This document shows, piece by piece, positions 1,147-40,400 of a DNA stretch of 64,000 nucleotides. This DNA is from a virus (Duplodnaviria; Caudoviricetes): positions 3,256 through 67,255 of IMG/VR virus record IMGVR_UViG_3300048016_000072; one strand, written 5' to 3'. The translations under genes and the position numbers were made by a program. The notes under the pieces were generated by a model. It made no database searches. It had not been told where the DNA came from and saw nothing but the letters and a program-made list of their open reading frames with translations. Every line of letters begins with the position of its first letter. Within the stretch, counting starts at the first letter, position 1.

Positions 1147-1180
1147 TAAATAAGTATCTTATAGTATACCCTAGTTGATA

Positions 1181-12953: not shown

Positions 12954-13864
12954 TGAATACTGACTTACAATATCGCACCTTTGACGAGTTAATGGCATCC
13001 GTGTCATCTGACTTTCGTATGTATAATCTTGAGGGGATGATTGAGCCAGCTGATCTTATCAAAGTTGCTCAACGGGTTTCTTATGATCTTGGTCTTCGTA
13101 TCAATAAGACAAAAGAGACAGTGCTTGAGATTACAAAAGGAAAAGCTCGTTTGCCTCTTGACTTCTATGTACTTAACAATGCAATGTTGTTAGGTCAGTA
13201 TAAAGTAAAGACTCCTGTAATGGCTGGTCGTCAAACAGAAGAATTAACACTTGTTGTTGATCCTGGTGTTTGTAGATCATGTGGCTCTGAAGCTACTGTT
13301 TGTGGATGTACTGATACGTATACTACATCAACTCAGCAACATGGTGATAACCATGGAGAAGTAGTACTTGTTGAAAAGATCAGAAATGAGGTTAGAATCT
13401 ATGATCACTTCGAAAGAGTACATATGAACCCAAGTAAGTTTTTATCTCGTTACGCTCAAAGTATGGGGCTTGCAGGAGATAGCACTGCTTGGCATGCAGA
13501 GATCAAGAATGGTTTTATTCATACCAATCTAACAGAAGGTAAGATCTACATAAACTACGAAGGATCATTAGAAGACGAAGATGGTAACTTATTAGTTCTT
13601 GATCATCCAATGATTAACGAATACTATGAGTATGCTTTAAAGAAACGTATTCTTGAAAACTTGTTTATGAACGGTGAGAATACCGTTACTAATCAGATTC
13701 AACTTATTGAACCGTTGTATAGAGCTGCAAGAAACAATGCTTTATCAATAGTTAATACTCCTAACTTCCAGGAGATGCATGATCTATGGGCTAAGAACAG
13801 AAAAGCCCAATACAATAGATACTATGCAATGTTTAGTTCAGCTTCAAATACTACCTTTAAGTAA
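12953..13864 (+). CDS. Tail ring/tubular protein (crAss-like, P22 gp4-related)
   Basis: KARLPLDF..IKNGFIHTN..GKIYINY..DEDGNLLV..YALK, immediately before the muzzle gene. Confidence 0.7.
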   Translation: MNTDLQYRTFDELMASVSSDFRMYNLEGMIEPADLIKVAQRVSYDLGLRINKTKETVLEITKGKARLPLDFYVLNNAMLLGQYKVKTPVMAGRQTEELTLVVDPGVCRSCGSEATVCGCTDTYTTSTQQHGDNHGEVVLVEKIRNEVRIYDHFERVHMNPSKFLSRYAQSMGLAGDSTAWHAEIKNGFIHTNLTEGKIYINYEGSLEDEDGNLLVLDHPMINEYYEYALKKRILENLFMNGENTVTNQIQLIEPLYRAARNNALSIVNTPNFQEMHDLWAKNRKAQYNRYYAMFSSASNTTFK

Positions 13865-16800
13865 TGGCAACATCACCAAAAGATAACGCTAGTGTAATCA
13901 ATACCTTCTCAAAAGGTATGATGAAAGACCTTAACGAAACCTTCGTTGGTGAAGGCGTATGGTTGCATGCACGAAACGCTGTCAATAACTCACATGATGG
14001 GCAAGTTGGTGTTCTTGGTAATGAGCCTGCTAACTTACACACAGTTGATTTACCCTACTCGTTAATTGGTTCTATACCTATTACAGATGGTACGTGGGCT
14101 TTATTTACAACAGATAACATTGATTCTGAGATAGGTATTTTTGATGCTAACCTTGGAACATACAAGACTGTTGTTAATGATCGTGGATTAAACTTTCATA
14201 AGAACAATCTTATTACAGGAGCATCTCGTAAAGGATTTGATTGTGGATATAAAGTATACTTTGATGATGCTCGCCGTAACCCATCTCGTGTATTAGATCT
14301 TGATAACGTCCCTTATGTTATAAAGAAAGTAAAGCAAGGTGAGTGTTACATTGAACAGTCAACAGGAGTTCTTGATGTTGAGCAGATGCGTCTTGCTCAG
14401 ATCTTGACCATACCTTGTGTTAATATTGAGAAAGGTAAAGCTGCTGGTACATTACGTAACGGTTCTTATCAAGTAGCGATTGCTTATTCAATCAATAGTA
14501 TTCGTGTTACTGACTATCTTGTTGTATCTGAAGTACAAGGTTTGTTTGAACATGATGGAGAAGGAGGTAGTTTAACTGTTGATATCTCGAATACAGACCA
14601 AGATTTTGATGAGTTTGAGTTAGTACTCATCTCAGTAGTAAATAATCAAACTACGGCCAAAAGATTAGGTATATACTCTGTTAATCAGAACCGTGTTTAC
14701 ATTGATTCTGTTGAGCCAGATCTTATTACAGTACCACTTGAACTTATCCCATTAGTGACTCCAGCAATTGAGGCATCTGATGCAACATTTAGATTAAACA
14801 ACTATCTTGTTAGAGTTGGTATACAAAGCAAGTTTGACTTTAACTATCAACCATTAGCTAATAAGATCCAAACTAAATGGGCAAGTGTTGAGTATCCTGC
14901 AAACTACTACTTAAAAGGTGGTAACAATACAGGGTACATGAGAGATGAGCAGTATGCTTTCTTTATTAGATGGATATACAATACAGGTGATAAGTCTGCA
15001 TCATACCATATTCCTGGTAGAGCTCCACGTGTTGAAGAGCGTAACTACTTATTTTCTGCAGATGCAAGTGTTATTGAAGGAGATGAGTCACCAGAAGTAT
15101 GGAAAGTAAAAAACACAGCTGAGGTTTTATCTGTTCCTAATACACAACGTGCAGATGGTGGTGTTCTTATTGCTGAAGGAGAGATGGGCTTTTGGGAGTC
15201 TACAGAGATTTATCCAGATAACAAACCAGACATCTGGGGTAACTTATGTGGAGAAAAGATTAGACACCATAAGTTTCCTGATAACTCATTAGCTGAGCAA
15301 GTATATCATCAATCACAAGGTGGTGATAAGATACGTGTTCTTGGGGTTAAGTTTGAGAATATTTCTGTACCATTAGATAATGCTGGTAATCCATTAACTG
15401 ATATTATCGGATATGAGATTCTTAGAGGTTCAAGAGAAGGTAATAAGACTGTTGTTGCAAAAGGTTTATTAAACAACATGCGTCAACATGATATGCCTGA
15501 TCAACCAGGAGTAAAGGGTTTGTATCAGAACTATCCATACAATGACTTAAGAGAAGATCTTTTCTTAACGTCAAACAAGAGCTTTATTGATCGTGGTGCA
15601 AGAAACAATCGTTTAGAAGATGGTCTTAAGGAGTATAGAAAAGACATGTTCTCTTTCCATAGTCCAGACACATCATTCTCTAAACCATATCTTTCAGCAT
15701 CTGAACTTAAGGTTTACAGTGAAGTATATGGTACATCTGAAGGATCTTTCAAGTATGTATACAAGCATCCACAGTTTAAGATTCTAAGTGAAGCTGCAAA
15801 AGGAACTATTGATGCATTACTTAGTACTCTTATTGCAACTAATCTCCTTACAAATGCGGCGAAAACTATTAAGTTTGGTGGCACGGAAGGTGAGCCGTTT
15901 GAGTTCTCATTAGGCGGTGGTGTTCCTACACCAGGTCCTCCTGCCGCTGCTTCAGATGCTCTTGGTGCTACAGGTGCTGCAACAAGTGCAATATCAATTG
16001 CTGCTTATGTTGCAAACCTTGCGATCTATACAGCAAACGTTGTTGCTTTAATCTATGCTGCTAAGTTATTAAAAGATCAGTATAGTGAAAAGGTAATAAA
16101 CGTTGTTGCAAGCATGATACCAAAGCGTCAGTTTGCAACACAGTATGACTCACATGGATTCTATAGCAACTACAGTATTAACACAGGTGTTGATAATGCT
16201 CGTAGAAAAGTAGCTGATGCCTTTTATATTGGAGACAACTTGCAGTCTTACAATGAGTATAGAATAAATAACTTGCACAGAGGTAAGTATGTATTAGTTA
16301 ATACTACTCGTGAGTTCGATGCTCCAAAAATAGTTGATACTAGTAGAAACACAAAGACTCAGTTACAGACTGATCTTAATACAACGGTTAAATCTGCGAT
16401 CTCAGGATACTACGGTGCCATTAAATCAGCGTTTCCATCTCAGTATGGTCAGCTAGAATCTATAAAGCAAGTTCCTGTGTATACATGTGTGTATCAAACT
16501 CAACCAGATAAAACAAAGGTTTATTCAACTGATGTGTTATTTGGAGGAGATATCTATATTGGTCGTTACACAGAAAAAAATCCGTTCTTATTCTTCCACG
16601 ATTGGTTATACGATCAACAAGATGAGTTGTTATATGACTATCGTGCAAGAATGTCTGTTGCTTACCCAAGATATTGGTTAGAGAATACAGATGCAAAACG
16701 TTTAGTAACAGATGGTACAACAGCGTTTTCACACCTTGACGATAGACATGAGGTTGATTCTTATGTTAACAGAGGACACTTCTACTTATTCTGTAATGGG

Positions 16801-18462
16801 GTTAGAGACTTCTTTGTAGAGTCAGAAGTAAACTTAGCATATCGTGATTGGGATGAGACTCCTGATAAGCGTCACTACGATCCAGATAAGTATACTGATC
16901 TTACATCAATGTTTAGATCAGATATTATGAAGAAGGGTAACTACTACAAGTATGATTACTCTCTTAGTGTATCTAAGTTATACAACAACTATATTAGTTG
17001 GGGATCAATGCAGTCTCGTAGCTATGATCCAAAAGTAGCTGAGCAATGTTATAGTTATTCACCAAATAGAATCATGTATTCTCTTCCACAAGAGCAAGAG
17101 CAAATGCAAGATAACTGGGTGCGTTTCTTACCTAACAACTACATTGATATGAGTGGTAGAGTAACAGCTTTAAAGTCTGTTGGTCATACAGGAGCTTTAA
17201 TTATGTTAGAGAATGAATCACCAATAATGATTCAAGGTGTTGACTCACTACAAACAGATGCAGGTATTAAGATTACTGTTGGAGATGGCGGTTTGTTTAA
17301 CCAACCAATGAGAAACATTATGAATACTGATGACGAGTACCAATATGGTTCATGTCAGAGTAAGTATGCTATTGTTGGTATACCAGCTGGTGTATTCTGG
17401 GTATCTCAGGAACAAGGTAAAATATTCCAGTATGCAGGACAGTATAAAGAAATCTCAAGAAACGGTAACAAGTGGTGGTTTGCTAAGTATCTTCCTTCTC
17501 AGTTGCTCAAAGCTTTTCCAAACTTTGCTCACTACGATAATCCTCTTATTGGTGTTGGCTGTAACATGTCCTATGATAATACTAATGAGATCTTATATAT
17601 TACTAAAAAGGATTACAAGCCAATAAACAAGAATCTTAAGTATGATACCATTAATGGTTTCTATACGCTAGGAGAAGAGTTTATTGATAACGGTGTTGTT
17701 AAGCAAACAAAGACTGCTGTAACTCTTGGTGATCCATTACATTTTGAGAATGCATCTTGGACAATGAGTTATGATGTTAAGAACGAACAGTTTTTATCTG
17801 TTCATGACTGGCATCCTAACTTTATTATTCCAGCAAGAAGTTCATTCTTGACTGTACAAGATAAAGGTATATGGAGACATAACAGTAGAACAGACTTATA
17901 CTGTAATTTCTATGGTGTTGATTATCCATTTGAAGTTGAGTATGTTGCATCAACAGGTGTTAATGTAGCTACTGTAAAGAACGTTGAATACATCCTTGAG
18001 TGCTTTAAGTATCTGAACGATGGTAATGATAAGTTCCATCTTCTTGATGATAACTTTGATAGAGCTTTAGTATATAACTCAGAACAAGTATCAGGTTACT
18101 TAGACCTTAACTTAAAGAGAAAGAATGATCCTATAAGCTTGTTACTATATCCAATGGTTCAATCTGATAGTATAAAGATCAACTACTCAAAAGAAGAGAA
18201 CAAGTATCGCTTTAACCAGTTCTGGGATATTACAAAGAACAGAGGTGAGTTCGTTGGTAACGAGGTTCCAATGTTTAATGTATCGTCAAACGGATATACA
18301 AGAGCTCTTAATCCAAAGTATGTTGACTATAAGAAGTCAGAGATTGAGCGTAAGAAGTTTAGACACTATGCAAACCGTGTATTTTTACGTAAGATAAAGA
18401 GTGGTTCAACCAAAATGTTATTTAAGCTAATAAGCACTAAGCTACAAATCAGTCAACGATGA
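13864..18462 (+). CDS. Tail muzzle/stabilisation protein (crAss-like, P22 gp10-related)
   Basis: 1532 aa. NTFSKGMMKD start, GYMRDEQYAF, IRHHKFPD, FGGDIYI and WTMSY..SVHDW motifs. Confidence 0.8.
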   Translation: MATSPKDNASVINTFSKGMMKDLNETFVGEGVWLHARNAVNNSHDGQVGVLGNEPANLHTVDLPYSLIGSIPITDGTWALFTTDNIDSEIGIFDANLGTYKTVVNDRGLNFHKNNLITGASRKGFDCGYKVYFDDARRNPSRVLDLDNVPYVIKKVKQGECYIEQSTGVLDVEQMRLAQILTIPCVNIEKGKAAGTLRNGSYQVAIAYSINSIRVTDYLVVSEVQGLFEHDGEGGSLTVDISNTDQDFDEFELVLISVVNNQTTAKRLGIYSVNQNRVYIDSVEPDLITVPLELIPLVTPAIEASDATFRLNNYLVRVGIQSKFDFNYQPLANKIQTKWASVEYPANYYLKGGNNTGYMRDEQYAFFIRWIYNTGDKSASYHIPGRAPRVEERNYLFSADASVIEGDESPEVWKVKNTAEVLSVPNTQRADGGVLIAEGEMGFWESTEIYPDNKPDIWGNLCGEKIRHHKFPDNSLAEQVYHQSQGGDKIRVLGVKFENISVPLDNAGNPLTDIIGYEILRGSREGNKTVVAKGLLNNMRQHDMPDQPGVKGLYQNYPYNDLREDLFLTSNKSFIDRGARNNRLEDGLKEYRKDMFSFHSPDTSFSKPYLSASELKVYSEVYGTSEGSFKYVYKHPQFKILSEAAKGTIDALLSTLIATNLLTNAAKTIKFGGTEGEPFEFSLGGGVPTPGPPAAASDALGATGAATSAISIAAYVANLAIYTANVVALIYAAKLLKDQYSEKVINVVASMIPKRQFATQYDSHGFYSNYSINTGVDNARRKVADAFYIGDNLQSYNEYRINNLHRGKYVLVNTTREFDAPKIVDTSRNTKTQLQTDLNTTVKSAISGYYGAIKSAFPSQYGQLESIKQVPVYTCVYQTQPDKTKVYSTDVLFGGDIYIGRYTEKNPFLFFHDWLYDQQDELLYDYRARMSVAYPRYWLENTDAKRLVTDGTTAFSHLDDRHEVDSYVNRGHFYLFCNGVRDFFVESEVNLAYRDWDETPDKRHYDPDKYTDLTSMFRSDIMKKGNYYKYDYSLSVSKLYNNYISWGSMQSRSYDPKVAEQCYSYSPNRIMYSLPQEQEQMQDNWVRFLPNNYIDMSGRVTALKSVGHTGALIMLENESPIMIQGVDSLQTDAGIKITVGDGGLFNQPMRNIMNTDDEYQYGSCQSKYAIVGIPAGVFWVSQEQGKIFQYAGQYKEISRNGNKWWFAKYLPSQLLKAFPNFAHYDNPLIGVGCNMSYDNTNEILYITKKDYKPINKNLKYDTINGFYTLGEEFIDNGVVKQTKTAVTLGDPLHFENASWTMSYDVKNEQFLSVHDWHPNFIIPARSSFLTVQDKGIWRHNSRTDLYCNFYGVDYPFEVEYVASTGVNVATVKNVEYILECFKYLNDGNDKFHLLDDNFDRALVYNSEQVSGYLDLNLKRKNDPISLLLYPMVQSDSIKINYSKEENKYRFNQFWDITKNRGEFVGNEVPMFNVSSNGYTRALNPKYVDYKKSEIERKKFRHYANRVFLRKIKSGSTKMLFKLISTKLQISQR

Positions 18463-21400
18463 GTTTTAACAGATCATTACTATCACAGATTACAAAAGAT
18501 TTAAACAAGAAACCAAGTAAGCCAAAGGTTCCAAAAAATCAATGGCAACATCCTGGTGAGATAACTACTATACCATCTAATAACATTACGATGGATGCTG
18601 TTAGTTATCCTGTGTTAGGTGTCCCTAATGTTGGACAAGCTCAAATGATGTATCCTAATCAAGACTATCTATTTCCTGATGCTGATAACGTTACTGAGTA
18701 TCCAATGATGCAGAATGGTGGACTATTAAGTCGATCTGTTACTTGCTCTAGTTGTGGTCATTCTTGGAAAGCAGTTGATGGTGGATCTGATCCTATGACA
18801 TGTCATAAGTGTGGAGGTTCTGTTAAGATGAAAAGTGGTGGTCAACATGGTGGATTGGATAGATGGTTTGCAGAAAAGTGGGTTGATGTTAAGAGTGGTA
18901 AACCATGTGGTAGACAAGAAGGTGAAAGTAGAGCTGGGTATCCAGCATGTCGTCCTTCAAAAAGAGTAAGTTCTGATACACCAAAGACAGCAAGCGAGTT
19001 GTCACCTGCAGAACGTGAAAAGTTTAAGAGATCAAAGACTTCTAGTGAAAGGATTAACTATCAACATAGAAGAAAACAATATGGTGGAGATACAATGGAT
19101 TATAACTATGATTACCCTACAGATTTTGAAAGCTATCAAGAAGCTTTAACAATGGCAAAAGGAGGAAATGTTCCTACTAATCCAGCATTATGGTCAAGAG
19201 CAAAGTCTGCTGCTCGCGCTAAGTATGATGTATATCCTTCAGCATATGCTAATGGCTGGGCTGCTAAGTGGTATAAGTCTAAAGGTGGTGGCTGGAGAAA
19301 AGGTCAATACGGTATAGAAGTTATGGGACAGGGTGGTACAAACAATCCTGGTTTCCAAGCATTACCTGATTATGTTCAACATAAGATATTATCAGAGATG
19401 AGCTTTGGTGGATATATGCCTGAGTTTGGTGGTGGTGGTTACACTGTGTCAAGAAGCTCTGATAGAAAAGGAAAGACACACAAAGTAACTGGTCCTGATG
19501 GAACTGTTAAATACTTTGGTGATTCTAAGTTAGGCCAGCATCCAAAAGATCCAGAACGTAAAGCAGCTTTCTATGCACGTCATAAAAAGAACTTAGATGG
19601 TAATCCTTACTTCAGAGCTTTTGCTAGAGCTACTTGGCAAACAGGTGGTGAGTCTAATATAGATCCAGATGCATCGTTTCTTGATTCAGCAAAAAAGGCT
19701 TTATCTTTTGCAAGTGATATACTTTCTATCCCTGCAAGAGCTGTTGTAAAAGGTTTAACAGGAAAATACCAAGATCCATCTGAAGCATTGGGTGTTAAAA
19801 ACCCTATTGGTGCATTTGCAATAAATGCTATTGCTGATCCAGTAAACTTGATTAGTGCAGGAACAGCAGGTATTTTAGCTAAAACATTAAAGAAAACTGG
19901 TAAAGCAGCTAAAGTATTGGACGTTGCTGATCGAGTTGCAAATGCAACGACGCTACAAAAACAAGTACCAGTTAGTAAAATCCCAGTTCCTGGTAACATA
20001 TCTCATTACGGTGCATCAAGTAATGATGTGATTAATGCACTTACAGAACGAGGTACAATTCTTGATCAACGAGGGGCTTTTAAAAAACCACTTCATCAAG
20101 ATGATATTGAATACTTTGGTACATATGGTGGCAGACCTATTGTAGGTGTTAATACCGTAAATGGCCCAGAGTATTTTTATAAGTCAACATCCTGGGGTGG
20201 TAAGAAAGAAATTAATCCAGGTGACTGGCAAGCATTTGGTCAATGGATGGATGTACCTACTGTTGATAACTGGTTTGTTAAAGGAAAAGGGTTTGAAAAC
20301 TTATATGGTAGTCAAAGTTTTAAGAACATAGCAAACCAGATGGACGATGTTATTATTCAAAAGTATGGAGTACCTAAGCAAGATTTGAATAAGTTTTTAA
20401 ACTTTCAAAACGTACAAGGGCAAGTGAATACTTTTACACCAAGTCGTGGGTATAAAGAAGGTGGTCAGACACGTAATGAGCGGGAGATGGTTAATGGTAT
20501 TGCTGATATCTTAGCTCAAGTAAGAGATCCACAAAATCGTGCTGAGATTGCTAAACAGATGATGTCTGATTTTAGACGTGATGATGTAGCTTACAACCAA
20601 CAGAGGTTCTTAGAGATGTCAGAGTTGAAGTATGGTGGAATGCAGAAGTATCAGACAGCTGGTCAAGTCATTAAACCAAAGAAAGGATACATCGATCTAT
20701 CAGAGTATGGTTATAACGCATTAGATGCTGAAGGTATTGCAAAAGCTGAAGAGCTAAATAAGATGTATCCTGGTTCTAAGTTTGTTTGTACCGCAAAAGG
20801 ATGTGCTGATATTGCAAGACAGATTGGCGATGCAAAAGGATATGACTTTGGCAGAAATAATGCTTGGGGATATAGAGGTAATATTCCTGAGTTATACACT
20901 TCTCCTGGTTATCAAACTGAATTAGATGCAGGTAAGCCATTACATGATCCAAGAAATTATGCTTTTCCAGAAGAAGTTAAACAACTATCTGGTGTATTAG
21001 TTGGTCTTAACCGCAAAGATAATTTTGATGGTAAGATGGCTAAAACTACGGCTGAAGCTAATGATAGTAGAGACTATGCTAACCGCATGCTGTATGCTGG
21101 TAATAATGCTGGTCATGAACACATTGGTTATTTTGGTGATGGTATGATGTATCATGGTACAGCATCTAGTAAAGATCATCCTGCATTTTATGTTATTGAT
21201 AATCCTGAAGATGGTATTGCTTTACCAGGTATATCGAAGTATAACGTTGTTAATGCAATGGGAGAACCTGGTCTTATGGACAGAGCAGCTAGTACTTTTA
21301 ATAGTGTTACTGGTTCTGTAGCAGATGCATTTAATGACTTCAAAGCTAAGTTTATAAAGCAACAAGGTGGTACTGCTTATAATGAGATGGTACAACGTTT

Positions 21401-22589
21401 AGCTTATAAAAAGAAAGGCGGTCTAGTAAAAGCACAAGTTGGTAAACAAAACCCATTCTTTCCTAATCTTAATCCAGCTCAAGAAGCAGCTGATGCTCAA
21501 GCTCAATTACCAGCTGATACAAATCCATTTGGTATATATGATGCAGTATCTCAAGAAGGTGCAGGTATTGCAGGTCAGATGAAGAGTAATATATTAAAAC
21601 AGAATACAACAGCTACTGCTACTACTAATCAAAAGAAAGAACAGAAGTCAAATCCTATGCTTAATCCTTTCTTTGCACTTAACACATTTATTGGTGGAGC
21701 TAATCTTAATGCACAAGCAAAAAGAGAAGAAGCAAACCGTCAGATGTTACGTTCTCAGAATGCTACATGGAATCAACAGTATGATTCAATGATGAATCGT
21801 GGAGATTACTCTCAAGGACCAAGCTCATATGGTTTATATAAACCAGATCAAATGAGTGTTCCTGGATTCTTTGCTGATGGTGGTTTAACAAGTCTTGATG
21901 TTGCTTTAGGTATGGCACCAACAATGGTTCCTAATCTTACTCCAGATTTAAACTATGCTGCTTTTGATATGCCGGCAACAAAAATACCTGAAGCTGCAGC
22001 ACCTGAATCATATAGTGTAGCACCTACTACTGATGTTGCTGGTTTAGAATTAGATCCAGATAAGATGCTTGAAGCTATTGCTGGTACAGAATCTGGTTCA
22101 AAGAAAGGACAATCAAAAGTTGGTATGCGTACTAAACTTATTGGAGATGGTGGTAAAAGAGCTAGTGCTTCAGGTACATTCCAAATCACTGACGGTACTC
22201 TTAAGCAGATTTACAAGAAAGATCAGTTTAATGATGCCTTCCCAACGTTTAATGCGTTTAAAGCAGCCTTTGATAAAGATCCACAGGTTGAATATCAAGC
22301 TGCTAGATCACTTGCTGTTGATCATATTAAGAACTATGGTGTTTATGCATTAGGTGCATGGTACTATCCTGACTTTGCTTCAAGAGCAGCAAAAGGAGAT
22401 ATGACCGTAATGAATCAGATACCAAGAGCAGACTATGGTAATAAAATGACATGGGGTCAAAACTTTAACAAGAATCTAAGCAGTTATAAGAAAGCACTTG
22501 GTAAATCACAGTTTGGTGGTGAGATGGAACTTACTATGGAAGAGATACAGCAGATTAAAGCAATGGGTGGTAAAGTAGAGTTCTGTTAA
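18459..22589 (+). CDS. Modular virion cargo protein: GG-delimited cassettes including a Zn-ribbon, NCLDV-like small domains, a Cys-His amidase-like domain and an SLT domain
   Basis: About 13 Phi-x-x-GG motifs. CSSC/CHKC, RWFAEKWVDV, YPSAYANGW, YFGD..DPERKAAFYARH, C..HIG, AIAGTESG..SASGTFQ. Confidence 0.75.
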   Translation: MSFNRSLLSQITKDLNKKPSKPKVPKNQWQHPGEITTIPSNNITMDAVSYPVLGVPNVGQAQMMYPNQDYLFPDADNVTEYPMMQNGGLLSRSVTCSSCGHSWKAVDGGSDPMTCHKCGGSVKMKSGGQHGGLDRWFAEKWVDVKSGKPCGRQEGESRAGYPACRPSKRVSSDTPKTASELSPAEREKFKRSKTSSERINYQHRRKQYGGDTMDYNYDYPTDFESYQEALTMAKGGNVPTNPALWSRAKSAARAKYDVYPSAYANGWAAKWYKSKGGGWRKGQYGIEVMGQGGTNNPGFQALPDYVQHKILSEMSFGGYMPEFGGGGYTVSRSSDRKGKTHKVTGPDGTVKYFGDSKLGQHPKDPERKAAFYARHKKNLDGNPYFRAFARATWQTGGESNIDPDASFLDSAKKALSFASDILSIPARAVVKGLTGKYQDPSEALGVKNPIGAFAINAIADPVNLISAGTAGILAKTLKKTGKAAKVLDVADRVANATTLQKQVPVSKIPVPGNISHYGASSNDVINALTERGTILDQRGAFKKPLHQDDIEYFGTYGGRPIVGVNTVNGPEYFYKSTSWGGKKEINPGDWQAFGQWMDVPTVDNWFVKGKGFENLYGSQSFKNIANQMDDVIIQKYGVPKQDLNKFLNFQNVQGQVNTFTPSRGYKEGGQTRNEREMVNGIADILAQVRDPQNRAEIAKQMMSDFRRDDVAYNQQRFLEMSELKYGGMQKYQTAGQVIKPKKGYIDLSEYGYNALDAEGIAKAEELNKMYPGSKFVCTAKGCADIARQIGDAKGYDFGRNNAWGYRGNIPELYTSPGYQTELDAGKPLHDPRNYAFPEEVKQLSGVLVGLNRKDNFDGKMAKTTAEANDSRDYANRMLYAGNNAGHEHIGYFGDGMMYHGTASSKDHPAFYVIDNPEDGIALPGISKYNVVNAMGEPGLMDRAASTFNSVTGSVADAFNDFKAKFIKQQGGTAYNEMVQRLAYKKKGGLVKAQVGKQNPFFPNLNPAQEAADAQAQLPADTNPFGIYDAVSQEGAGIAGQMKSNILKQNTTATATTNQKKEQKSNPMLNPFFALNTFIGGANLNAQAKREEANRQMLRSQNATWNQQYDSMMNRGDYSQGPSSYGLYKPDQMSVPGFFADGGLTSLDVALGMAPTMVPNLTPDLNYAAFDMPATKIPEAAAPESYSVAPTTDVAGLELDPDKMLEAIAGTESGSKKGQSKVGMRTKLIGDGGKRASASGTFQITDGTLKQIYKKDQFNDAFPTFNAFKAAFDKDPQVEYQAARSLAVDHIKNYGVYALGAWYYPDFASRAAKGDMTVMNQIPRADYGNKMTWGQNFNKNLSSYKKALGKSQFGGEMELTMEEIQQIKAMGGKVEFC

Positions 22590-22597
22590 ACCCTTGA

Positions 22598-22643
22598 AGT
22601 TTAGCTTGTTAAACTAGCAATATTTTAGTAAATTATAGAGTAG
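22598..22643 (+). promoter_or_regulatory. Inverted repeat (AGTTTA/TAAACT) plus late-promoter-like motif
   Basis: Homologous to the 25549-25597 intergenic region. Confidence 0.55.
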
Positions 22644-22656
22644 ATACTATATTATT

Positions 22657-25542
22657 ATGAAGAAGTATAAAGTAAGAGTTACACTTAATCAACCTAACCA
22701 GTATCAAACTGGTGGTCAGCCAATGTTTACTCAAGAAGAGTTATTGGCTCAGGCAACAGGTATTGAATCAGCATATCCAAAAGCAGCAACTAATGTTTCT
22801 GTTTATGATTATTTAGCGGCTCATGGTCAAGCAGCTAATGCTGATTATCAATCTCGCAAGAAGATAGCTCAGAACCTTGGTATTAAAAACTATAAAGGTA
22901 CTGCAGAGCAAAATCTTCAGATGCTTGAGATGCTTAAAAAGCAACAAGATTTATCTTCTTTATTAAAAGAACAAGCAGCTCCTCAATCTACAAATAAGAG
23001 ATCTACATTACCAACAGCGACAGATCCATCTTGGAATACGCCAATGCCTTCTCCTGCTAGTGGTATGAGATATATACCTCAGCCTTTTGGAGCTACTGGT
23101 AATATTGCACCTGCTACTAACAATGATGATAGCTGGGGTAAAGCACCAGTGAAAAAAAACAAACGTTCTACTTTACCTGTAGCACCTGATAACTCTTGGG
23201 AAGATCAAGGACCTCTTCCTGCAAGCGGTATTAGATATATCCCACAACCTTTTGTTGGTGCTGCAAACTATGGAGATGGTTGGGATGATGCTCCAACTGT
23301 TTGGGAATCTATAATCCAAGGTCCTGTATTCTATCCAAACTTGCCTGCAAAAAAAGGTAAGAAGCAAACACCTGTAGTCACTAATATACCAAACTGGACT
23401 CGTAACAGAATCCCTGGTGATCAGATGGGTGATGGTTGGGATTCAAAGCGTCCTTTCTATATGCCACAAAATATGATTGGTAGAGAAGAAGGTGGTGAGA
23501 TGATGGCTTACGGTGGTCAATATGGTCATAGTTTAGACCTTGGTTCTCGTATTATTGATAACGAGATGGGTCAACCAGATCCATATGCTGTTAAGGATAC
23601 ATTACAAGCTGTACCAAGAGATATGGCTAATCTAGAAGCTGAGCGTGGTGAAACTGCCTATGGTGACTTAGATAATGATGGTGAGATGGAGCATTCAAAG
23701 ATTGGCGGTAAGCGTCACTCTCAAGGTGGTACTCCGTTAAACTTGCAGCCAGGTACATTCATCTATTCTGATACAAAAAGCATGAAGTTAAAAGGTCAAG
23801 CTTTAGCTCAGTTTGGTAAATCTGTTGGTTCAAGCAAAGGATATACTCCTGCTGATTTAGCTAAACAGTATGAAATAAACAAATATAAAGCTATCTTAGC
23901 AGATCCAAATGCAGATCAGTATCAGAAACGTACTGCTGAGATGATGATGAACAACAACAAGTTAAAACTTGCCCAGTTAGCGTTAGCTCAAGAAGCAAAG
24001 AAAGGATTCCCTCAAGGTATCCCTCAAGCTGCTATGATGGCTTTACCTCCAGAGATTGCAGAACAGTTACAAGGAATGCAAGAGCCTCAAGGTATGGAGC
24101 AATCACCAGAAGCTATGGAATACCAAAAGCGTGGTGGTTCAACATTCTCAGGTAATGCATGGTATCAAGAAGGTGGTATTAATAACCCAGGCTTCAAAGC
24201 TTTACCAGATTACGTTCAAGAAAAGATTACATCTAATATGGCATATGGCGGCCTTATTGATTATCAAAAACGTGGTGAAGTAAAAGGATTCCAATCTTGG
24301 CCTGGTGATAAGTATTCTGGTGTAAAGAATGCATCTAAGTTTCCAAGTAATTCATGGGATCAGTATGCTGCATCTATTGGATACAATGGACCTTCTGGTG
24401 ATAATCTTGCTTTACAAAAGTTTATTATGCAAGATCCAGCAAGAGCAGCAAGAATCAACGAGTTACATAAACAGTATGGACAACCAACTGGAGGTATGTT
24501 TGATTCTAAACTTGGATATCGTTGGGATCAGTTTAAAAACGAAGAGTTGAAAAAACAAAACGTTAACCCTTACTTTCCTACTGAAATAGATCCTAACGAG
24601 CAGTTTCAGTTACCTGATGAGTCACAAAGTACTATACCACAAGGTTATGTAACAGATGAGGAGTATAAAGCTCCAGTAAAAGCTGCAACTCCACAACAAC
24701 AAGCTGTAGCACAAAAAGCAAAACCGGCAAAAGATCAGTTTTCTTACATGACTCCTGATAAGTTAGCAATGCTACAATCTTTATTTACAAGAGCTGGTGT
24801 TCCAACAATGACTCCATTTGTTCAAGCTCCAGATTATGTAAAACAAGAAGCTGCATTTGCTGATCCTACAAGACAGTATGCTGCAGTTGCTGAACAAGCT
24901 AACATGCAGAATCAAGGACTACGTACATTTGGTAGACCACAAGCTAATCTTGCAGGTGCTAGTCAAATAGCAGGTAAGCAACTAGAAGCTATATCAAACA
25001 TCGGAGCTGCAACAAATATGCAAAACGTTGGCATTGCTAATCAAGTTAATGCTACAAACACTGCACTTGAAAATCAAAACTTAGCACAAAGAGCACAAGC
25101 TGCTAATATGTTAGGCGAGATGGTTAATAAGTATAACTTAGAGAACTTCTCAATGAGAGATGCTGCTGATAAGCAAACATTAGCTGCATATCAGAATGCA
25201 TTTATGAATAGATCAATGCTTGATATGGTTAACAAATCTAATCCGTACTATGCAATGGATCCTATTACTGGTAGAGCGACGTTTAAAGGTGGTAAGAATC
25301 CTTTTAACTCAACAACTGGTAGTTCTGCTGCAGGTATGAATACATATCCTGATTTGTTAGCTTATGCAACTAAAACATTAGGCATGCCACAAGCAATGGC
25401 TGAGAAGTGGGCAGAATCACAACTCTCTGGTAAATCAACTAGAACTACAACAGATAGTAACTATGATGGGTATCCAGATAAGCAAGTAGCAAGTATGATG
25501 GGTGCTGTTAATCCATTCTTAGCAATGTTCGGGCAACGTTAA
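22657..25542 (+). CDS. Virion cargo protein with DUF3597-like domain, conserved GKRHSQGG domain and GG-delimited cassettes
   Basis: SVYDYL..SRKKIAQNLGIKNYKGTAEQN, ANLEAERGE..GKRHSQGGTP..FIYSD, and a Q/A/N-rich C-terminus. Confidence 0.7.
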   Translation: MKKYKVRVTLNQPNQYQTGGQPMFTQEELLAQATGIESAYPKAATNVSVYDYLAAHGQAANADYQSRKKIAQNLGIKNYKGTAEQNLQMLEMLKKQQDLSSLLKEQAAPQSTNKRSTLPTATDPSWNTPMPSPASGMRYIPQPFGATGNIAPATNNDDSWGKAPVKKNKRSTLPVAPDNSWEDQGPLPASGIRYIPQPFVGAANYGDGWDDAPTVWESIIQGPVFYPNLPAKKGKKQTPVVTNIPNWTRNRIPGDQMGDGWDSKRPFYMPQNMIGREEGGEMMAYGGQYGHSLDLGSRIIDNEMGQPDPYAVKDTLQAVPRDMANLEAERGETAYGDLDNDGEMEHSKIGGKRHSQGGTPLNLQPGTFIYSDTKSMKLKGQALAQFGKSVGSSKGYTPADLAKQYEINKYKAILADPNADQYQKRTAEMMMNNNKLKLAQLALAQEAKKGFPQGIPQAAMMALPPEIAEQLQGMQEPQGMEQSPEAMEYQKRGGSTFSGNAWYQEGGINNPGFKALPDYVQEKITSNMAYGGLIDYQKRGEVKGFQSWPGDKYSGVKNASKFPSNSWDQYAASIGYNGPSGDNLALQKFIMQDPARAARINELHKQYGQPTGGMFDSKLGYRWDQFKNEELKKQNVNPYFPTEIDPNEQFQLPDESQSTIPQGYVTDEEYKAPVKAATPQQQAVAQKAKPAKDQFSYMTPDKLAMLQSLFTRAGVPTMTPFVQAPDYVKQEAAFADPTRQYAAVAEQANMQNQGLRTFGRPQANLAGASQIAGKQLEAISNIGAATNMQNVGIANQVNATNTALENQNLAQRAQAANMLGEMVNKYNLENFSMRDAADKQTLAAYQNAFMNRSMLDMVNKSNPYYAMDPITGRATFKGGKNPFNSTTGSSAAGMNTYPDLLAYATKTLGMPQAMAEKWAESQLSGKSTRTTTDSNYDGYPDKQVASMMGAVNPFLAMFGQR
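22993..23265 (+). repeat. Intragenic repeat NKRSTLP..SW..PASG.RYIPQPF (two copies)
   Basis: Visible in the translation. Confidence 0.85.
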
Positions 25543-34428: not shown

Positions 34429-37400
34429 ATGGCATGTTTATATAACATTAGCGGATCAGAGTTTTCAGAAGTAGAGGTTAAGCAGATTCTAAAGAGTGCT
34501 GCTACTCTACCAGGTAATGAAGGTCTGTCTGATGAACAATTATTAGATCTTGTAAAACAAGCTGTTGAAGATCGCTTTGTTAACATCAACTTATTTAATC
34601 TTGTACAAGAGCAGTCAATAACGAACGCGATCTTTTCTCAGTTCGTTGATGAGCTTGGTCTGTTAAAGCCAGGTGGTACGTATGAGAAATCATCTCGTGT
34701 TTTATTTGCTGATATAAAGAGTAAGTTAAAGAACACTGCTTTAAAGGTTAAGTATTTTACTGAGAATATTGCTACTTCAGAAGAAGCATATAATGCTTTA
34801 AAAGAATCAGCAACAGAAGATATGCTTTCTAAGATACCTGAGCTTGGTATTCTTAACTACAAGGAGTTCTCTTATCTTGGAGAGTTGCTAGATAACGTTA
34901 CTGATGATGAGAACTTCAATAAGTTCACAGAGCAAGTTATCATTAAGCTTAATCGTTTAGGACTAAAGGTTTCATCTGAAAACGAGATTCAAGACTTTGG
35001 TTTAACAAACGAATATTATGAGAGCTTACTTGCTGATGCAGGTGAGTTATTTGGTGAAGATGATGTTGATGTTGAAGACCCTTCAGTAAACGAAAGCTTT
35101 TCTGATTCACGTTCATTCCAGATGAACCCAAAGGATACTGCTACGACTCGTGTAAAGCTGTTATTTTCAAGCATTAAGAGTGACAAGGCTAATCTATTAG
35201 GTCTTGCTGATTTCGTGGCTTACGATCAAGTATTTGAAGACCTGTTAGTATTAGGTGCGGGATTGCAACATGTTACTTATGAGTCTTTGCAAGAATCTAT
35301 TTTAGAGAAAGCTCAGGTTAAGCCATACCTACTAAACGTTCATAAAAAGTTAGGTGAGTTACAAGCGTCAAAAAACGTTCAGCTACTAAACGAAGTACTT
35401 ACTGTAATAAACAAAGCATACACAGATCATACTATGTTGCTTTGGGAGAAAGGTAAAGAAGGTGGTGTAACTGTTAAAGTCATTAGCTCTAATCGTAATA
35501 GCGTTGTCAGACAAATAAAAAGCGATTGGTTAGAGTTACAAAAAGTATCAAAGCTTGTTAACAAGAATAAGTTTGGTAACTTAGTTATAAACACTGAGTT
35601 AGCTAAGTCATTGAAAGAGAAGTACTTAGAGATTAGATCTGGTAATAACTTAACAAAGAAACAAGAGTTCTTTAAAGAGTTACTTACTTCAATGAATATT
35701 CCTGTTGATGATGCTTACATGAAACATGTTGGAGCAGCATTAAAAGCAAACAAGTTCAGAACCTTTAAAGCAAAGAGCTTCTCTGATTTACTTGCAACAG
35801 GTAATGTTGTTGATAATATTCTTAATACGTTAACAGCTGATATTGATACAACAACTGAGTCAGCAAACTACGAAGATAAGAACAACCCTATTGTTCACGA
35901 GCGTGTATTTAATATACTTGCAAGTCTTTACTATGATTTACACTCAGATATCTATCAAACTGGTAGTTATCAGAATGGTGAGAACAAAAACATCTATGCT
36001 TATGTACAACCTTCTTACTTAGAAACAGTAAAGAAAAAGCTAAAGACAAAGAGTTTCTTAGAGGTACTAAGCAATAGAGCTTATAGTAAAAGTTCAGAAG
36101 TAGTTAGACGTTTGCTTGAAGACGAGAAGACTGATAACGAATCATTTGTTTATGCAATATCGTATTCAGATAGTATAAAAGAAGATAAGAAAGGTGAGAT
36201 TGGTAAGGTTAAAAAGAACCAGTCACCAAGAGAGTTAATTCTTGATACATATTTAAAGCATCAGAATAACTTTGCTAAGACTGGCTACTATAATATGTTT
36301 ACTTTATCGGATAAGACAACCGCTCCGGTAATACAAATAACAAAAGATAGTCTTGACCCATCAACTGATTTTGCTTTCTTCAAGACTAAGCCAACAGTTA
36401 GAGATTCATTCCAGTTTAAAGACGCATTCAAGAATAAGTTATATGATCTAGCAAAAGCTGAGATAGATCGTATGATTGCGTATGCTAACTATACTAAGAA
36501 AGAAAAGCTGAACATTGCTAACTTTGAAACAGCTAGTAAGATGTTCTTTTTATTCCCAGTATTAAACAATCGTTCTGATGCAAAGCTTAATATGATCAGA
36601 ACAAAGATCTATCAAGGGGTTGAACCATCCATAGAAGATGCTCAATACCTAAAAGATCTTATTGGTGAGTCAATAAAAGATGACGTTATAAAAGAGTTAT
36701 CTAACTTGTTGCGTAAAAACATTATATCAAAAGGACCAACTAGTATTGATCCAGCAACAAATAGAGTACAGACATCTTATTACTTTCCTTTCTTTAATAA
36801 TGTTTACATGAATCAGCTTTCACAGCTACAAGATTCAAGTAAGGCTATCTTTGCTATTGCAGATTTAAAGTATAACGTGCTTAGAGCTCAGATTAATACT
36901 ACTCAAGTATTAGGTGCTGATATGGCTTTATTCTATAAAGAGTCAAAGCTTGTTAGTGCTAATCAAATCAAAGAGGTATTTGGTGAGTCAATGACTGTTA
37001 ATCAGTTATTGTCATACAATGTATCAACTGAGATGACACCAGAAGAGCAGAGCAAACGTAATATTATAAACGATGTTCTTAATGGTACAGTACTAAGTAC
37101 AGTTGATGAGTTCTCAAAACGTGCTGCTATGTTTATTGCTCCTGGTTCTCAGGGTACTACAACTTGGCAAAGCACAAAGGGAAAGATTGTTGATGTATCT
37201 TTATACAAGATGATTACGTTAAAAGACGTGATTAAGTCTAACGATCAGTTCAGCAAGATTGAAACAACGGATGCTCAGGAGTTTGTTACATTACAAGAGC
37301 ATATTAATCGTATGATGTCTGAGGGCAGAATCCCTTTAGATATTTATGAGAGTATTTCTGATAAGATAGCACAAGCTCGTAAGAAGAAAACCTTTGATTA

Positions 37401-40400
37401 CTCTTTATCAGATATCGAGTTAGGGTTTGTATTGCAGCCAACAAAGCCAGTACATTCTTCTAACTCTGAGACCGATGGGTTTAATGAGATTAACTACGTT
37501 AAGTCTTCAGCATATCCTCTTATTCCAGATAACACGCGCGATTCAGAGATGGACAAGCTTCGTGTGTTCATGGAGAAAAACAACGTCGGTTCTGCTGCAT
37601 TTAAAACTGCAACAAAAACAGGTGCACCTATATCAACATTAGAAGTGTTTGATGATAACGGTAACTTTATTGAGCCATCTGAAGCTGAGCTCTCTTCTAA
37701 CGTGCAGACTCTTTCAAGAGAAGGTCTTCGTACACAACAAGAGATTCCTCACCAAAAAGAGATGATTAACGTTGTTAGTCAGATGGACCGTCAGTTATTT
37801 GAAGGTCTTGATAGCGTTCTTGACTTTATGTTTGCAGGCAAGAAGCTTACGGCAGCTCAGTTAAAAGGATTGAAAGAGCAGATTCGTATTGCTTTATTTG
37901 AAGGAAATGCTGAAGAGCTTCTTGATAGAATGGGTGTTTCAATAACCGATGAGTATGTTTCATTCAAGAGCGAGAGAAGCCTAGCTAACTTATTAAAAGA
38001 AGAAGCTATTTCTCGTAACTTAAGCATAAACGATATTCGTTCTATTGCAACAAACAAAGACGGTAAGTTAGTTATACCAGTATATTTATTATCAAATAGC
38101 TCTAAGTTTGAAGGATTGCTTACATCTATCTTTAGTAAAGTAGTTAAGCTAAAGCTTACTGGTACATCATTAGTACAAGTATCTGCAGTTGGTACAAAGA
38201 TTAAAGAGGGTGAGTTATCTGATAAGTTAAAGAGTGAGATTGTTTATACAGAAGTGTATGATGCCTCAAAAGGATTACAGTATATCAGAAAAGAAGCTGA
38301 TGCTGTATCTAAAGGCGGGAAGGTAAAGAAAGGTGAGGTGCAAGCAGCACAAGTATTTATGTCTCAGTTCTTAAAGGATGAGAACGGAAAGCTTATAAAC
38401 ATAAAAGACTTTGCTACAAAAGATGAGAACGGTAGATTGATTCTTGACAGTACACGCATTCCAAGAAAGTTATTACAACTTATTGGTGCACGTATTCCAA
38501 ATCAGTTGCACTCATCAATGCTTCCTATTGAAGTTGCTGGTTTCTTACCATCATATATGGAGAACACTATTATTGTTCCTGATGGTATTACAGCACAGAT
38601 GGGTTCTGACTTTGACGTTGATAAGTTATATGCTTATTTATCTAATCCTAAGTATACTTACAAGAATTCTGCATCTAAGTTAATAGATGAACTTACAAAA
38701 GAGAAAGAAGCTATAAAAGATAAGTACAAAGAACAGTTAGAAAAAGCAGATATTGATTTAGCAAAGTTACTTAACAGCGAACAACAGTTTGAGATTGCAA
38801 AGCTTAACGAAAGCATTGAGAAGTATAGAACTCGCTTAGGTTATAAGAATCTAGGTGAGAAAGAGCGTGAGCAAAAGCAACGTATTCTTGATGGTTTATA
38901 TGAGAAGAGATCTTCAATCTATGATGAAGTAGCTAATGGTGTTGAGCGTAAGAAGCTTAATCAAACAAAGTATAAGATTAAGAGTCAGAGAGCTGCTGAG
39001 CTAACTGCTATAAACGATAAGATAAAAGCACAGAAGTCACAGATCGAATCTGTTGAGCCAGTTGCTTACGAGTCGTCTATTAGCGATTTTAAAAACTTTG
39101 ATCCAAAGTCTTTATCAGAAGAGCAGTTGTTTGAGATGTATAAAGATATACACTGGTCAGTACTTACTCACCCAACAACATTTGATAAGATTACGTCATC
39201 AATCGACTTGTCTGACTACAACGATGAGAAAGAGTTATTCTATAAAGAAGGTATTGCAACATTACCAGTTAACTTCTTACCGTTTGATTACAATACTCAG
39301 ATCAATACGTTCTTAGATAATAGAAGTGGTAAACTAGGTACAGGTATCTTTGCTCAGCTATTATCATTCCTTGCTGAACATCAAGACAAAAAGACTGTTG
39401 GTTTTTCTGCTGGTATTAACATTAAGAAAGATAGCGGTGAGATTGTAAATCTTAGCTATCTAACTGCAGAAGGTAATACTACATTTAAGAGCGATGCTAC
39501 GGGTAAGACATTAACAAGATCAAAGACTCAGAATGCTTCTGCTACTCTTAACGAATCATTAGACAACGCAAAGAATAAGAACCTTAACGTATTTAACTTG
39601 AATAGTGCATCAATGGCACCAGCTAAGTTACTTATGTCATTAAGTTCTAACAGTGGTGAGATTGCTGACTTACGTTACGTAACACGTTTCTTCCCTCAGT
39701 TTATTGTTAAGTATCTTAATGAACAAGAAGAGATATCAAAAGATAGTTTTGCTGGTGGACAGAAGAAGTATACATCTGAGATTATTGCAGATGTTAAGAT
39801 GCAGTTTATTAATCTGCTAAGTGCAAATGCTAGAGAGCTTGCAACAGAAGATAATATTGGTGCTATGCCAGTACTTAATCCAAAAGAGCTTCTTGATCTT
39901 TTAAAAGAAGAAGTAGTATTGCGACCTAAGTTGAATCAACTTATGCTTGCTTATTCTCCAGCGGATATCAACTTTAAGCCAGAAGATAGAAAAGTACTTG
40001 ATGAGTTTATCATGAAGCAGTTATCTATTCTTACTTACTATGAGACATTACATGCTTACGGTACTCCTCAATCAACATTACTAAATAACAGTAATGTTAT
40101 TAGTCAAGGTGTTGGATCTAACTTGTTTACTTTACTAAGTAAGTATCGTAAGTTCCAGAGTATTGCAAAAGCTGCTGATACTCAATATGGTGAAGGTTTA
40201 CCTGTTGTTATTAAGCCATTAAAAGGAGATCCTGTAGTAGTTGATAGACTATTAAACATTGATGCTATCTTTGGTAAGTTTGAGACTGATCCAATTAGTG
40301 AGAGTGTTGACTTTACACCAACTACTCAGACTGGTCATGCTGTTAAGAATAGTATCTTCTTAGCATACAAAGTATTAAGTAAGGTATCACCTATTCACTT

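Follow-up and report, generated by a model that had tools for sequence, protein, structure and literature searches.

Crassviruses are among the most abundant phages known, and what their packaged cargo proteins do is, to our knowledge, largely unknown. In ΦcrAss001, the muzzle gene gp44 is followed by gp45 and gp46, which encode virion cargo proteins, and then by the RNA-polymerase subunits; in the accessible part of the structural report, gp45 is thought to be ejected first, and its residues 425-552 form a single domain of the model (Bayfield et al. 2023, PMC10172136; PDB 7qog and others). The order gp44 then gp45 is also that of the MH675552 record. Polyvalent proteins of phages and conjugative elements, as described in the available sections of Iyer et al. 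2017 (PMC5512222), are single polypeptides of 2-15 unrelated domains that are delivered together with the DNA. Here we describe an open reading frame (ORF) of 1376 aa (18459-22589, plus strand; P0001) in a window of 64,000 nucleotides, taken from a viral source record of about 67 kb (IMGVR_UViG_3300048016_000072). This target ORF lies directly downstream of ring-2, ring-1 and muzzle genes, in the slot that the cargo protein gp45 occupies in ΦcrAss001, and the metagenome runs that contain it are labelled freshwater. The encoded protein is organised as a series of cassettes that end in a repeated Gly-Gly motif, and its relatives differ in cassettes mostly at these junctions. We put at roughly 0.55 the joint probability that the virion of a freshwater crAss-like phage carries it as a cargo (ejection) protein and that its junctions act as hinges that are not cut.

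Gly-Gly junctions and cassette boundaries

An initial annotation, made from the letters of the window, had described the protein as delimited by a Phi-x-x-GG motif and had named 13 sites. All 13 are present, with the last G codon ending at 18722, 18842, 19088, 19166, 19337, 19412, 19649, 20465, 20639, 21371, 21422, 21884 and 22520, as are the six given for the next ORF (22657-25542). The Gly-Gly part of the description holds, whereas the hydrophobic position is loose, K or S standing there in 4 of the 13. Altogether the target has 23 GG runs, the ten not named including the intra-module FGTYGG, STSWGG and LIGDGG. A mean of 13.2 is expected, and none of 1000 composition-preserving shuffles reached 23. 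The next ORF has 10 runs against 6.3 expected, a number reached by 62/1000 shuffles, and no other large ORF of the window was GG-enriched in the shuffle test. The target also stands out with a stricter pattern, [MYFWL][QKAES]xGG, which was a post hoc choice: the target has 8 copies (0.93 expected; 0/2000 shuffles), the next ORF has 4 (0.49 expected; 3/2000 shuffles), and the remaining 39 ORFs, which together comprise 17,744 aa, have 7. Among 2102 isolated GG sites in 121 family proteins, position -3 shows a 7-fold enrichment of Met (25% of sites) and a 2.5-fold enrichment of Tyr, and position -2 is dominated by Q, A, K and E; given the homology of the proteins, these sites do not count as independent.

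The cassettes of the target, with window coordinates and strand, are the following.

Module 1, aa 1-88, 18459..18722 (+): conserved N-terminal head and a small ITMxGV module; ends MMQNGG
Module 2, aa 89-128, 18723..18842 (+): CxxC...CxxC Zn-ribbon cassette, with weak Zn-ribbon Pfam matches (E 0.014, below the cut-off); ends MKSGG
Module 3, aa 129-210, 18843..19088 (+): DUF5872 basic domain, net charge +9 (Pfam E 6e-19); ends KQYGG
Module 4, aa 211-236, 19089..19166 (+): acidic 26-aa spacer; ends MAKGG
Module 5, aa 237-293, 19167..19337 (+): second basic mini-domain, PTNPxLWSRAK...YPSAYANGWAAKWYK (phrog_27331, E 2.3e-5); ends MGQGG
Modules 6-7, aa 294-327, 19338..19439 (+): 25-aa NPGFxALPDYVQxKI cassette ending MSFGG, then a 9-aa YMPEFGGGG spacer
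Module 8, aa 328-397, 19440..19649 (+): third basic domain, net charge +9, invariant across close relatives; ends WQTGG
Module 9, aa 398-669, 19650..20465 (+): 272-aa unit without fold assignment, the most mobile cassette; ends YKEGG
Module 10, aa 670-727, 20466..20639 (+): 58-aa helical cassette, QTRNEREMV...; ends LKYGG
Module 11, aa 728-971, 20640..21371 (+): putative NlpC/P60-like papain-fold cysteine peptidase/amidase; ends KQQGG
Modules 12-13, aa 972-1142, 21372..21884 (+): 17-aa piece ending KKKGG, then an N/Q-rich region ending FADGG
Module 14, aa 1143-1354, 21885..22520 (+): possible lytic-transglycosylase-like domain (AGTESGS, SASGTFQIT); ends SQFGG
Module 15, aa 1355-1376, 22521..22589 (+), stop included: conserved 22-aa C-terminal tail EMELTMEEIQQIKAMGGKVEFC

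In a protein database, 578 relatives were found at E up to 0.001 among 8000 candidates scored, and the BLASTP comparison below uses the 120 listed. Their architectures vary widely, with DUF5872, DUF5754, DUF3597, YkuD, SET, LysM, Amidase_2 and glucosaminidase domains in the precomputed Pfam annotation. BLASTP of the target against them gave 301 high-scoring segment pairs (HSPs). Internal ends fell exactly on the last G of a GG in 95/288 cases (chance fraction 0.017) and on the 13 named sites in 85/288 (chance 0.009), and 152 of the 261 internal starts were within 5 aa of a GG (chance 0.175); these figures are a strong trend and not a count of events, because HSP ends favour conserved residues and the sequences are related, and this limits their weight. 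Among five close relatives, 86-95% identical in their shared parts, four of the five indels of at least 30 aa run from GG to GG. The Zn-ribbon cassette (module 2) is missing from P0002 and P0004 and kept in P0003 and P0005. P0007 is without aa 85-324, with the junction MMAKGG/YTV, and carries a 48-aa GG-to-GG insertion at aa 724-727. The slot of aa 398-669 holds one of three alternative units, two of which replace that of the target in relatives, and is empty in P0005, an exact loss that joins WQTGG to QTRNE.

The same tendency is seen at the DNA level: blastn against the loci L001, L011 and L007 gave blocks with 15 internal boundaries, of which 12 are no more than 6 aa away from a GG (chance 0.217; binomial 2.5e-6 if shared ancestry is disregarded). 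The muzzle of L011 is 96.5% identical, yet its cargo gene shares only three blastn blocks with the target (aa 1-84, 326-405 and 989-1129), the last of which begins after the KKKGG piece. When the cargo ORFs of seven relatives are cut after each GG, recognisable cassettes result, many of only 4-30 aa. The initial annotation had placed the motifs between unrelated modules and had suggested plug-in cassettes whose gain and loss breakpoints would coincide with GG; HSP ends, close relatives and DNA blocks all agree with this, and the idea that relatives swap modules at these junctions appears well supported by the sequence comparisons.

Contigs of four freshwater runs, aligned to 18000-23000, carry such differences as well. 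One X22 contig (depth 19.6, shorter side 96 letters) joins 19642 to 20459, with 816 nt skipped and 7 ambiguous letters. The heptamer AGGTGGT is present at both edges, at 19643-19649 (CAA AC[A GGT GGT] GAG) and at 20459-20465 (GA[A GGT GGT] CAG), and the deletion therefore removes exactly aa 398-669 between two repeats, recreating the form of P0005. At 18840/18841, X22 and X24 have contigs that leave the window sequence for a different cassette, TAYVDS...KNASGG, which L007 and L016 also carry; read by eye, it is inserted exactly between MKSGG and QHGG. Natural populations thus contain different cassette forms side by side, and these differ for the most part, though not in every case, at GG junctions. 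Dips in depth over 19670-20003 in four runs were set aside as evidence, these being contig data, and only the bridging contig was used.

Modules of the string and the surrounding genes

Module 1 is common to most homologues (coverage 41-102/120), 27 HSPs stop exactly at aa 88, and its small module is placed elsewhere in other relatives. Module 3 is 72% identical to a stand-alone region of Prochlorococcus phage P-SCSP2, and module 5 about 80% identical to stand-alone hypothetical proteins of Synechococcus phages; relatives show an 8-aa indel just ahead of the MAKGG of module 4. Module 8 has no significant match to DUF5754 in Pfam (E 0.67). Module 10 alone was matched (query 266-334) by 10 among the 150 listed rows of a representative search, and 14 HSPs stop at its end, aa 727. 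When six pieces of the target were run against Pfam with a limit of E 10, DUF5872 was the one family to pass its cut-off, and the whole protein matched nothing in the PDB by sequence at E up to 1. The labels Zn ribbon and basic mini-domains, given initially, are reasonable. A tblastn search of cultured phages matched 5 records, each of which aligned with 3-8% of the target and only in the basic mini-domains.

The basic trio (DUF5872, PTNPxLWSRAK...YPSAYANGWAAKWYK and ...RRSFRARH...) travels together in small (12-60 kb) phage contigs, as single proteins or as neighbouring genes (L022, L029, L034, L040, L042, L049, L060, L071, L075 and L032), and a fourth mini-element, AQQAAIAIAMKKAGKKPK, recurs among these loci. 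In these contigs the three domains are joined by ordinary charged linkers without the GG motif; the motif would therefore belong to the crass-like cargo context and not to the basic domains themselves.

The unit that had been called amidase-like (aa 728-971) is borne out as an NlpC/P60-like fold. Its AF2 model (pLDDT 78.5) aligns best with 4xcm_B (VIA-align Z 6.7, rmsd 3.5, 107 aligned), 22 chains reach a Z of at least 5, and the top 12 rows are NlpC/P60-type cell-wall endopeptidases; support for a papain-like fold is moderate because all Z are below 8. Residues C50, C55, H161 and H172 of the module are invariant in 11 sequences, and either Cys could be catalytic. Foldseek gave no match to the model at E up to 0.001, no Pfam family (NLPC_P60 and CHAP included) matched aa 670-971 at E up to 10, and five short homologues (P0171, P0188, P0147, P0145 and P0161) had no Pfam NLPC_P60 or CHAP match. 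With moderate confidence, and from the model, we take the module to be a putative NlpC/P60-like papain-fold cell-wall peptidase. Relatives hold YkuD, Amidase_2, glucosaminidase or LysM in its place (precomputed Pfam), and such an exchangeable enzyme slot would fit a role in breaching the wall. An HExxH...PTEIxAR cassette is present in L066:6001-9138 and in P0145.

In family-1 lytic transglycosylases the catalytic Glu belongs to an E-S motif, and a G-x-x-Q motif comes after it. The initial label of an SLT domain for aa 1143-1354 has motifs like these in its favour (AGTESGS and SASGTFQIT, with E69 nearly invariant in A4), together with an Atlas lead in which 9 of 30 feature hits fall in a set where 47% of members carry SLT (PF01464). 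It found no counterpart in sequence searches: Pfam gave no SLT match at E up to 10, and a profile of 11 sequences against the PDB gave only an unrelated match at E 1. We therefore keep the label as a lead only. In L011:6001-10344, a different lysozyme-like unit and a unit with an H...D...HxH-like pattern stand ahead of the C-terminal tail.

The toxin-like label of the unit at aa 398-669 has been dropped, no family or fold match having been found for it. Its model has a pLDDT of 63.5, the best fold match reaches Z 3.6, and no chain among 48,161 has a Z of at least 5; the N-terminal 120 residues of the model are of low confidence, and we make no claim on them. Pfam on 24 short homologues found only SET in P0234 and DUF5872 in P0223, and the SET match, which concerns relatives of the aa 599-721 region, was not confirmed for the target.

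The genes of the operon that bear on the argument are the following.

12276-12953: CrAss_Ring_2 gene (Pfam E 8e-17)
12953-13864: CrAss_Ring_1 gene (Pfam E 1e-11)
13864..18462 (+): muzzle protein gene (Pfam crAss_MUZ, E 2e-21), which marks the crassvirus tail/cargo operon
22657..25542 (+): next cargo gene, 961 aa, with the same junction motif as the target
34429..42918 (+): ORF of 2829 aa, virion RNA-polymerase-like, which matches phrog_16227, virion structural protein (E 1.2e-48); an RNA-polymerase-type DFDVD (aa 1394) and a zincin-type HELLH (aa 2635) are present, both by regular expression only

The target has no internal stop, its start overlaps the 3' end of the muzzle gene by 4 nt, and five further large ORFs lie downstream of it. 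The ring and muzzle matches, together with the ΦcrAss001 gene order, confirm the crass-like cargo locus recognised initially. The RNA-polymerase-like ORF had no Pfam match. A relative, G001, is a 111-kb record estimated to be 91% complete, whose muzzle is 98% identical to that of the window.

The 961-aa product of the next gene had been said to use the same motif; it does, and it even shares a cassette with the target, the 25-aa NPGF cassette, which recurs there at aa 507-532 and also in L002 and L007. Compared with its orthologues, which begin MKxYKVRIKxxPxxMAYGG, it carries an insertion of about 260 aa that YQTGG (aa 20) and MAYGG (aa 287) flank. The insert (aa 21-282) includes a cassette SVYDYL...GTAEQNLQMLEML, which L007 and L011 have within their first cargo gene, and two proline-rich repeats. 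A second short element, (N)WLDKY/FxxGG, is found at the ends of some relatives, which begin MKNWLDKFQKGG and end GGNWLEKYN or GGNVNWLDNIN; relatives with an element of the WLDKY type are P0024, P0027, P0031-P0033, P0036, P0038 and P0045. In some relatives, then, GG flanks short peptide elements.

Other observations concern the wider genome. A collagen-repeat tail fibre with a Peptidase_S74 intramolecular chaperone domain is encoded at window 1175-2914, and G001 86349-95139 encodes two more fibres with S74 domains as well as a Gly_rich_2 protein that has 23 GG runs over 321 aa. A SegE-like GIY-YIG endonuclease ORF (53798-54241, minus strand) lies inside the replication module, and an ORF with a cREC_REC domain (47794-48237, minus strand) adjoins the dUTPase gene. 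Contigs of X20 and X22 join 18251 to 18543; the 291 nt skipped take in the last part of the muzzle gene and codons 1-28 of the cargo gene.

Hinge, cleavage site or docking signal

About 15 cassettes make up the protein, each ending in hydrophobic-x-x-Gly-Gly: the N-terminal head, the Zn ribbon, three basic domains, short helical spacers, the unit of unassigned fold, the NlpC/P60-like unit, a possible lytic-transglycosylase-like unit and the 22-aa tail. We propose that, at the protein level, each junction would act as a flexible, disordered hinge, and each cassette would fold, unfold and refold alone. At the DNA level, the GGTGGT-type codons of the junctions form short direct repeats, so that cassettes may be lost, gained and exchanged in frame. 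According to this proposal the chain would enter the capsid and leave it in one piece, passing as a thread through portal and tail, as has been suggested for gp45, and would deliver enzymes that degrade the wall, along with the small basic domains, to the envelope and cytoplasm of the host. In both models the ends that bear the motif have a pLDDT below 50: residues 237-244 for aa 728-971 and residues 267-272 for aa 398-669. In addition, very short GG-flanked units, such as QHGG and YMPEFGGGG here and YMGEMAYGG, QIDEMANGG and SMKNGG in relatives, make sense as spacers and not as released products.

The cargo protein of ΦcrAss001 offers some hints that this style of junction may be old in crassviruses. 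gp45 has 20 GG runs where 11.5 are expected, a number reached by 1/1000 shuffles, and its structured segments 214-245 and 425-552, as given in the accessible text of PMC10172136, are flanked by GG sites. Three GG pairs (427-428, 434-435 and 447-448, INEGG included) lie within the domain 425-552. The gp45 gene (L088:1988-4516) also encodes GGWLNTQGG at aa 427-435 and EYPSMFAYGG at 555-563, which resemble elements of the present family. This is a resemblance and not a demonstrated homology: BLASTP against gp45 gave a best E of 0.1 for the target and 0.53 for the next gene, and an hhalign comparison of the next-gene family with gp45 was not significant, at a probability of 0.6%.

Several points weigh against uncut hinges, besides the limit on the HSP counts given above. 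For this phage and its close relatives, that the chain stays uncut is what we infer, and the three GG pairs of gp45 lie inside a folded domain of a protein without significant similarity to the target. The strong preference for Met or Tyr seems more specific than a simple flexible linker would need. Not every breakpoint is at a junction: the fifth large indel among the close relatives, a replacement in P0005 at about aa 1024-1090, is not GG-bounded, nor are an 8-aa indel and a few indels of 1-3 aa; the remaining 3 of the 15 DNA block boundaries are more than 6 aa from a GG; and in X20 and X24 the letters 21506-21727 (aa 1016-1090) are replaced by 241 others, like P0005 and not at GG. The Gly codons of the GG pairs (GGT in 30/42) match those elsewhere in the gene (GGT in 70/100), and hence there is no special DNA signature beyond the repeat of the motif itself. 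Finally, an HExxH motif in the co-packaged RNA-polymerase ORF, a zincin-like cassette in 2 of the 121 family members (by regular expression) and the likeness of the papain-fold module to C39 double-glycine peptidases (Z 4.5-4.8) all leave room for an enzyme that cuts the chain.

The initial annotation had put forward such cutting, or else capsid loading, as the role of the motif. According to the cleavage explanation, which we consider unlikely, hydrophobic-x-x-GG is a cleavage site, and the polyprotein is cut after GG into separate effectors before, during or after ejection, either by the zincin-like motif in the RNA-polymerase ORF, by the papain-fold module acting in cis, or by an unrecognised enzyme. 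Several features of the motif would suit a protease: its specificity, with Met or Tyr at -3 and GG invariant; its position in low-confidence, exposed ends of modules; and its occurrence just before the conserved C-terminal tail and just after the 20-aa N-terminal piece of the next gene. The HELLH at aa 2635 of the 2829-aa RNA-polymerase-like ORF is the sole candidate protease motif that a regular-expression search found in the operon, and processing of phage polyvalent proteins by zincins has been proposed in the available sections of Iyer et al. 2017 (PMC5512222); the zincin-like cassettes of the two relatives point the same way. As for ΦcrAss001, the gp45 peptides named in the accessible text (79-101, 181-190, 275-300 and 307-320) cross none of its GG sites, and the continuity of gp45 from tail to capsid is proposed there and not shown (PMC10172136).

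However, none of our computations gave positive evidence for cutting. Pfam searches of the 41 window ORFs and of 32 further G001 ORFs found no protease family except Peptidase_S74, which is a tail-fibre chaperone; no clan-CE, C39 or prohead protease and no C5, C63, C57 or C48 family was found among window ORFs of at least 100 aa and G001 ORFs of at least about 115 aa, a search within whose reach remote homologues do not fall. The adenain consensus is (M/I/L)-X-G-G↓X, with the hydrophobic residue at P4. In the present motif the hydrophobic residue (Met, Tyr or Phe) would be at P5, with Q, A, K or E at P4, so that the register differs. Nor is the motif denser where the candidate enzyme is present: its density per 1000 aa is 5.4 for the 22 relatives that have the papain-fold module and 6.9 for the 98 that lack it. 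The C39 peptidases that this module resembles (3b79, 5xe8, 7s5j and 6mpz) are outranked by NlpC/P60 wall hydrolases by about 2 Z units. Cutting at all sites would yield products of 4-9 aa, and three GG pairs are uncut in the gp45 domain as modelled in the accessible text (PMC10172136). In the accessible text of the ΦcrAss001 papers, figures and Extended Data aside, no word begins with "proteoly" or "cleav". The broader proposition, that crass-like phages load effectors into the virion as polyprotein strings, to be split in the capsid or in the host by a protease that the virion carries, is one we rate no higher than the cleavage of this motif itself. If cutting did occur, it would represent a maturation scheme so far known from eukaryotic viruses, and the pieces of ΦcrAss001 gp45 that are bound in the tail and in the capsid could then stem from distinct fragments and not from one threaded chain.

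Another explanation requires no cleavage: the motif, or the elements it flanks (EYPxMxxGG, GGWLDKYQxGG and the C-terminal tail), could be docking or capsid-loading signals for proteins of the portal, the ring or the capsid interior, in which case whatever cassette stands between such signals would be packaged. It would account for the fact that the N-terminal head and the 22-aa tail are kept while the middle is swapped. Tails resembling EMELTMEEIQQIKAMGGKVEFC (e.g. EMEVTPEQLEQLRAQGYQFEII) end 54 of the 121 family proteins, behind differing upstream modules (rough regular expression), which makes the tail after GG a candidate packaging or docking signal. In gp45, GGWLNTQGG lies at the edge of the portal-bound domain 425-552 and EYPSMFAYGG just after it, in the portions of the structure described in the accessible text, and the sole hhalign match of the next-gene family to gp45 is PxMxAYGG (E 0.093). 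This resemblance is statistically insignificant, however, the 13-23 copies per chain are far above what docking would need, and positions -1 and -2 vary freely, so that a docking role of the motif seems to us still more doubtful than cleavage.

That the motif is without function, a by-product of Gly-rich composition (10.3% Gly in the target) or of the duplication of a few homologous GG-ending cassettes, which do recur (the NPGF cassette is in both genes) and inflate the family-wide counts, is very improbable and already disfavoured, since composition-preserving shuffles never reach the observed number of runs, since modules as unrelated as the Zn ribbon, DUF5872, the NlpC/P60-like unit and the unit of unassigned fold all end in it, and since the breakpoints of three independent kinds of comparison fall on it.

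Comparison with known systems

Processing of polyproteins at Gly-Gly-X is known from the clan CE proteases adenain, ASFV pS273R and Ulp1/SUMO. The likeness to the present junctions lies in a GG right before the proposed boundary, some target sites (QTGG) even resembling SUMO tails; the difference lies in the lack of such a protease by Pfam and in a hydrophobic residue at P5 and not at P4. The leaders of double-glycine bacteriocins, which C39 peptidases remove, are single N-terminal peptides of the pattern LSxxELxxIxGG. Here too segments end in GG, and the papain-fold module does align with C39 enzymes, but the motif of the target is internal, repeated and in another register, and NlpC/P60 enzymes match the module better, with Z up to 6.7. 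Ejection (internal core) proteins of podoviruses, of the T7 gp16 type, are packaged in the head, ejected before the DNA and carry a peptidoglycan-cleaving domain. Compared by description, the target would resemble them in head packaging, ejection ahead of the DNA and a wall-cleaving domain, and differs in that they are not described as strings of cassettes with a repeated junction. Ejection proteins of T7 and P22 are mentioned in the accessible text of PMC10172136.

ΦcrAss001 gp45 is like the target in being encoded directly after the muzzle, in its enrichment in GG and in an EYPxMxxxGG-like element. It differs in size and in a predicted transmembrane helix (842 aa), whereas no convincing helix of this kind was found in the target, whose highest 19-residue hydropathy is 1.27; the target has, in turn, wall-hydrolase-like modules and three basic mini-domains. 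The present phage has two genes with the GG motif where ΦcrAss001 has gp45 and gp46. In the literature searched, which did not cover all journals, we found no description of a repeated Gly-Gly junction in phage cargo proteins and nothing on proteolysis of Crassvirales cargo proteins or cleavage of crAss-like ejection polyproteins, and searches for DUF5872 and WLDKY returned only unrelated matches.

In this freshwater lineage, the cargo gene behind the muzzle is a fast-evolving rack of small cassettes with one standard junction, such that near-identical phages (muzzle 96-98% identical) carry different cassettes and variants share the same metagenomes. The junction provides a simple sequence rule for splitting such proteins into functional units for annotation and expression, and the rack itself a natural catalogue of candidate injected effectors. 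Whether the cargo is one threaded chain or a set of processed pieces is a question that the ΦcrAss001 structure, in its accessible description, left open, and one that can now be addressed directly in virions.

The polyvalent proteins provide perhaps the nearest frame for the target, which carries about 15 modules at the cargo locus. As far as the available sections of PMC5512222 describe them, they share with it a large multidomain build, a mosaic of rapidly reshuffled domains and the presence of peptidoglycan-active or peptidase domains, and the zincin motif of the co-packaged RNA polymerase, which is a motif match only, recalls them as well. No HExxH is present in the target itself, a zincin in the same protein being a common but not obligatory polyvalent theme in these sections. 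Most of the target's cassettes differ from the domains described there in being tiny (9-82 aa) and in not belonging to the anti-restriction or nucleic-acid enzymes that are listed. The same sections seem to describe no standard junction motif, because neither "linker" nor "glycine" occurs in their text. The target would therefore fit among the known mosaic, polyvalent proteins that phages eject, and its new feature would be a standard junction motif that allows the precise, in-frame exchange of cassettes.

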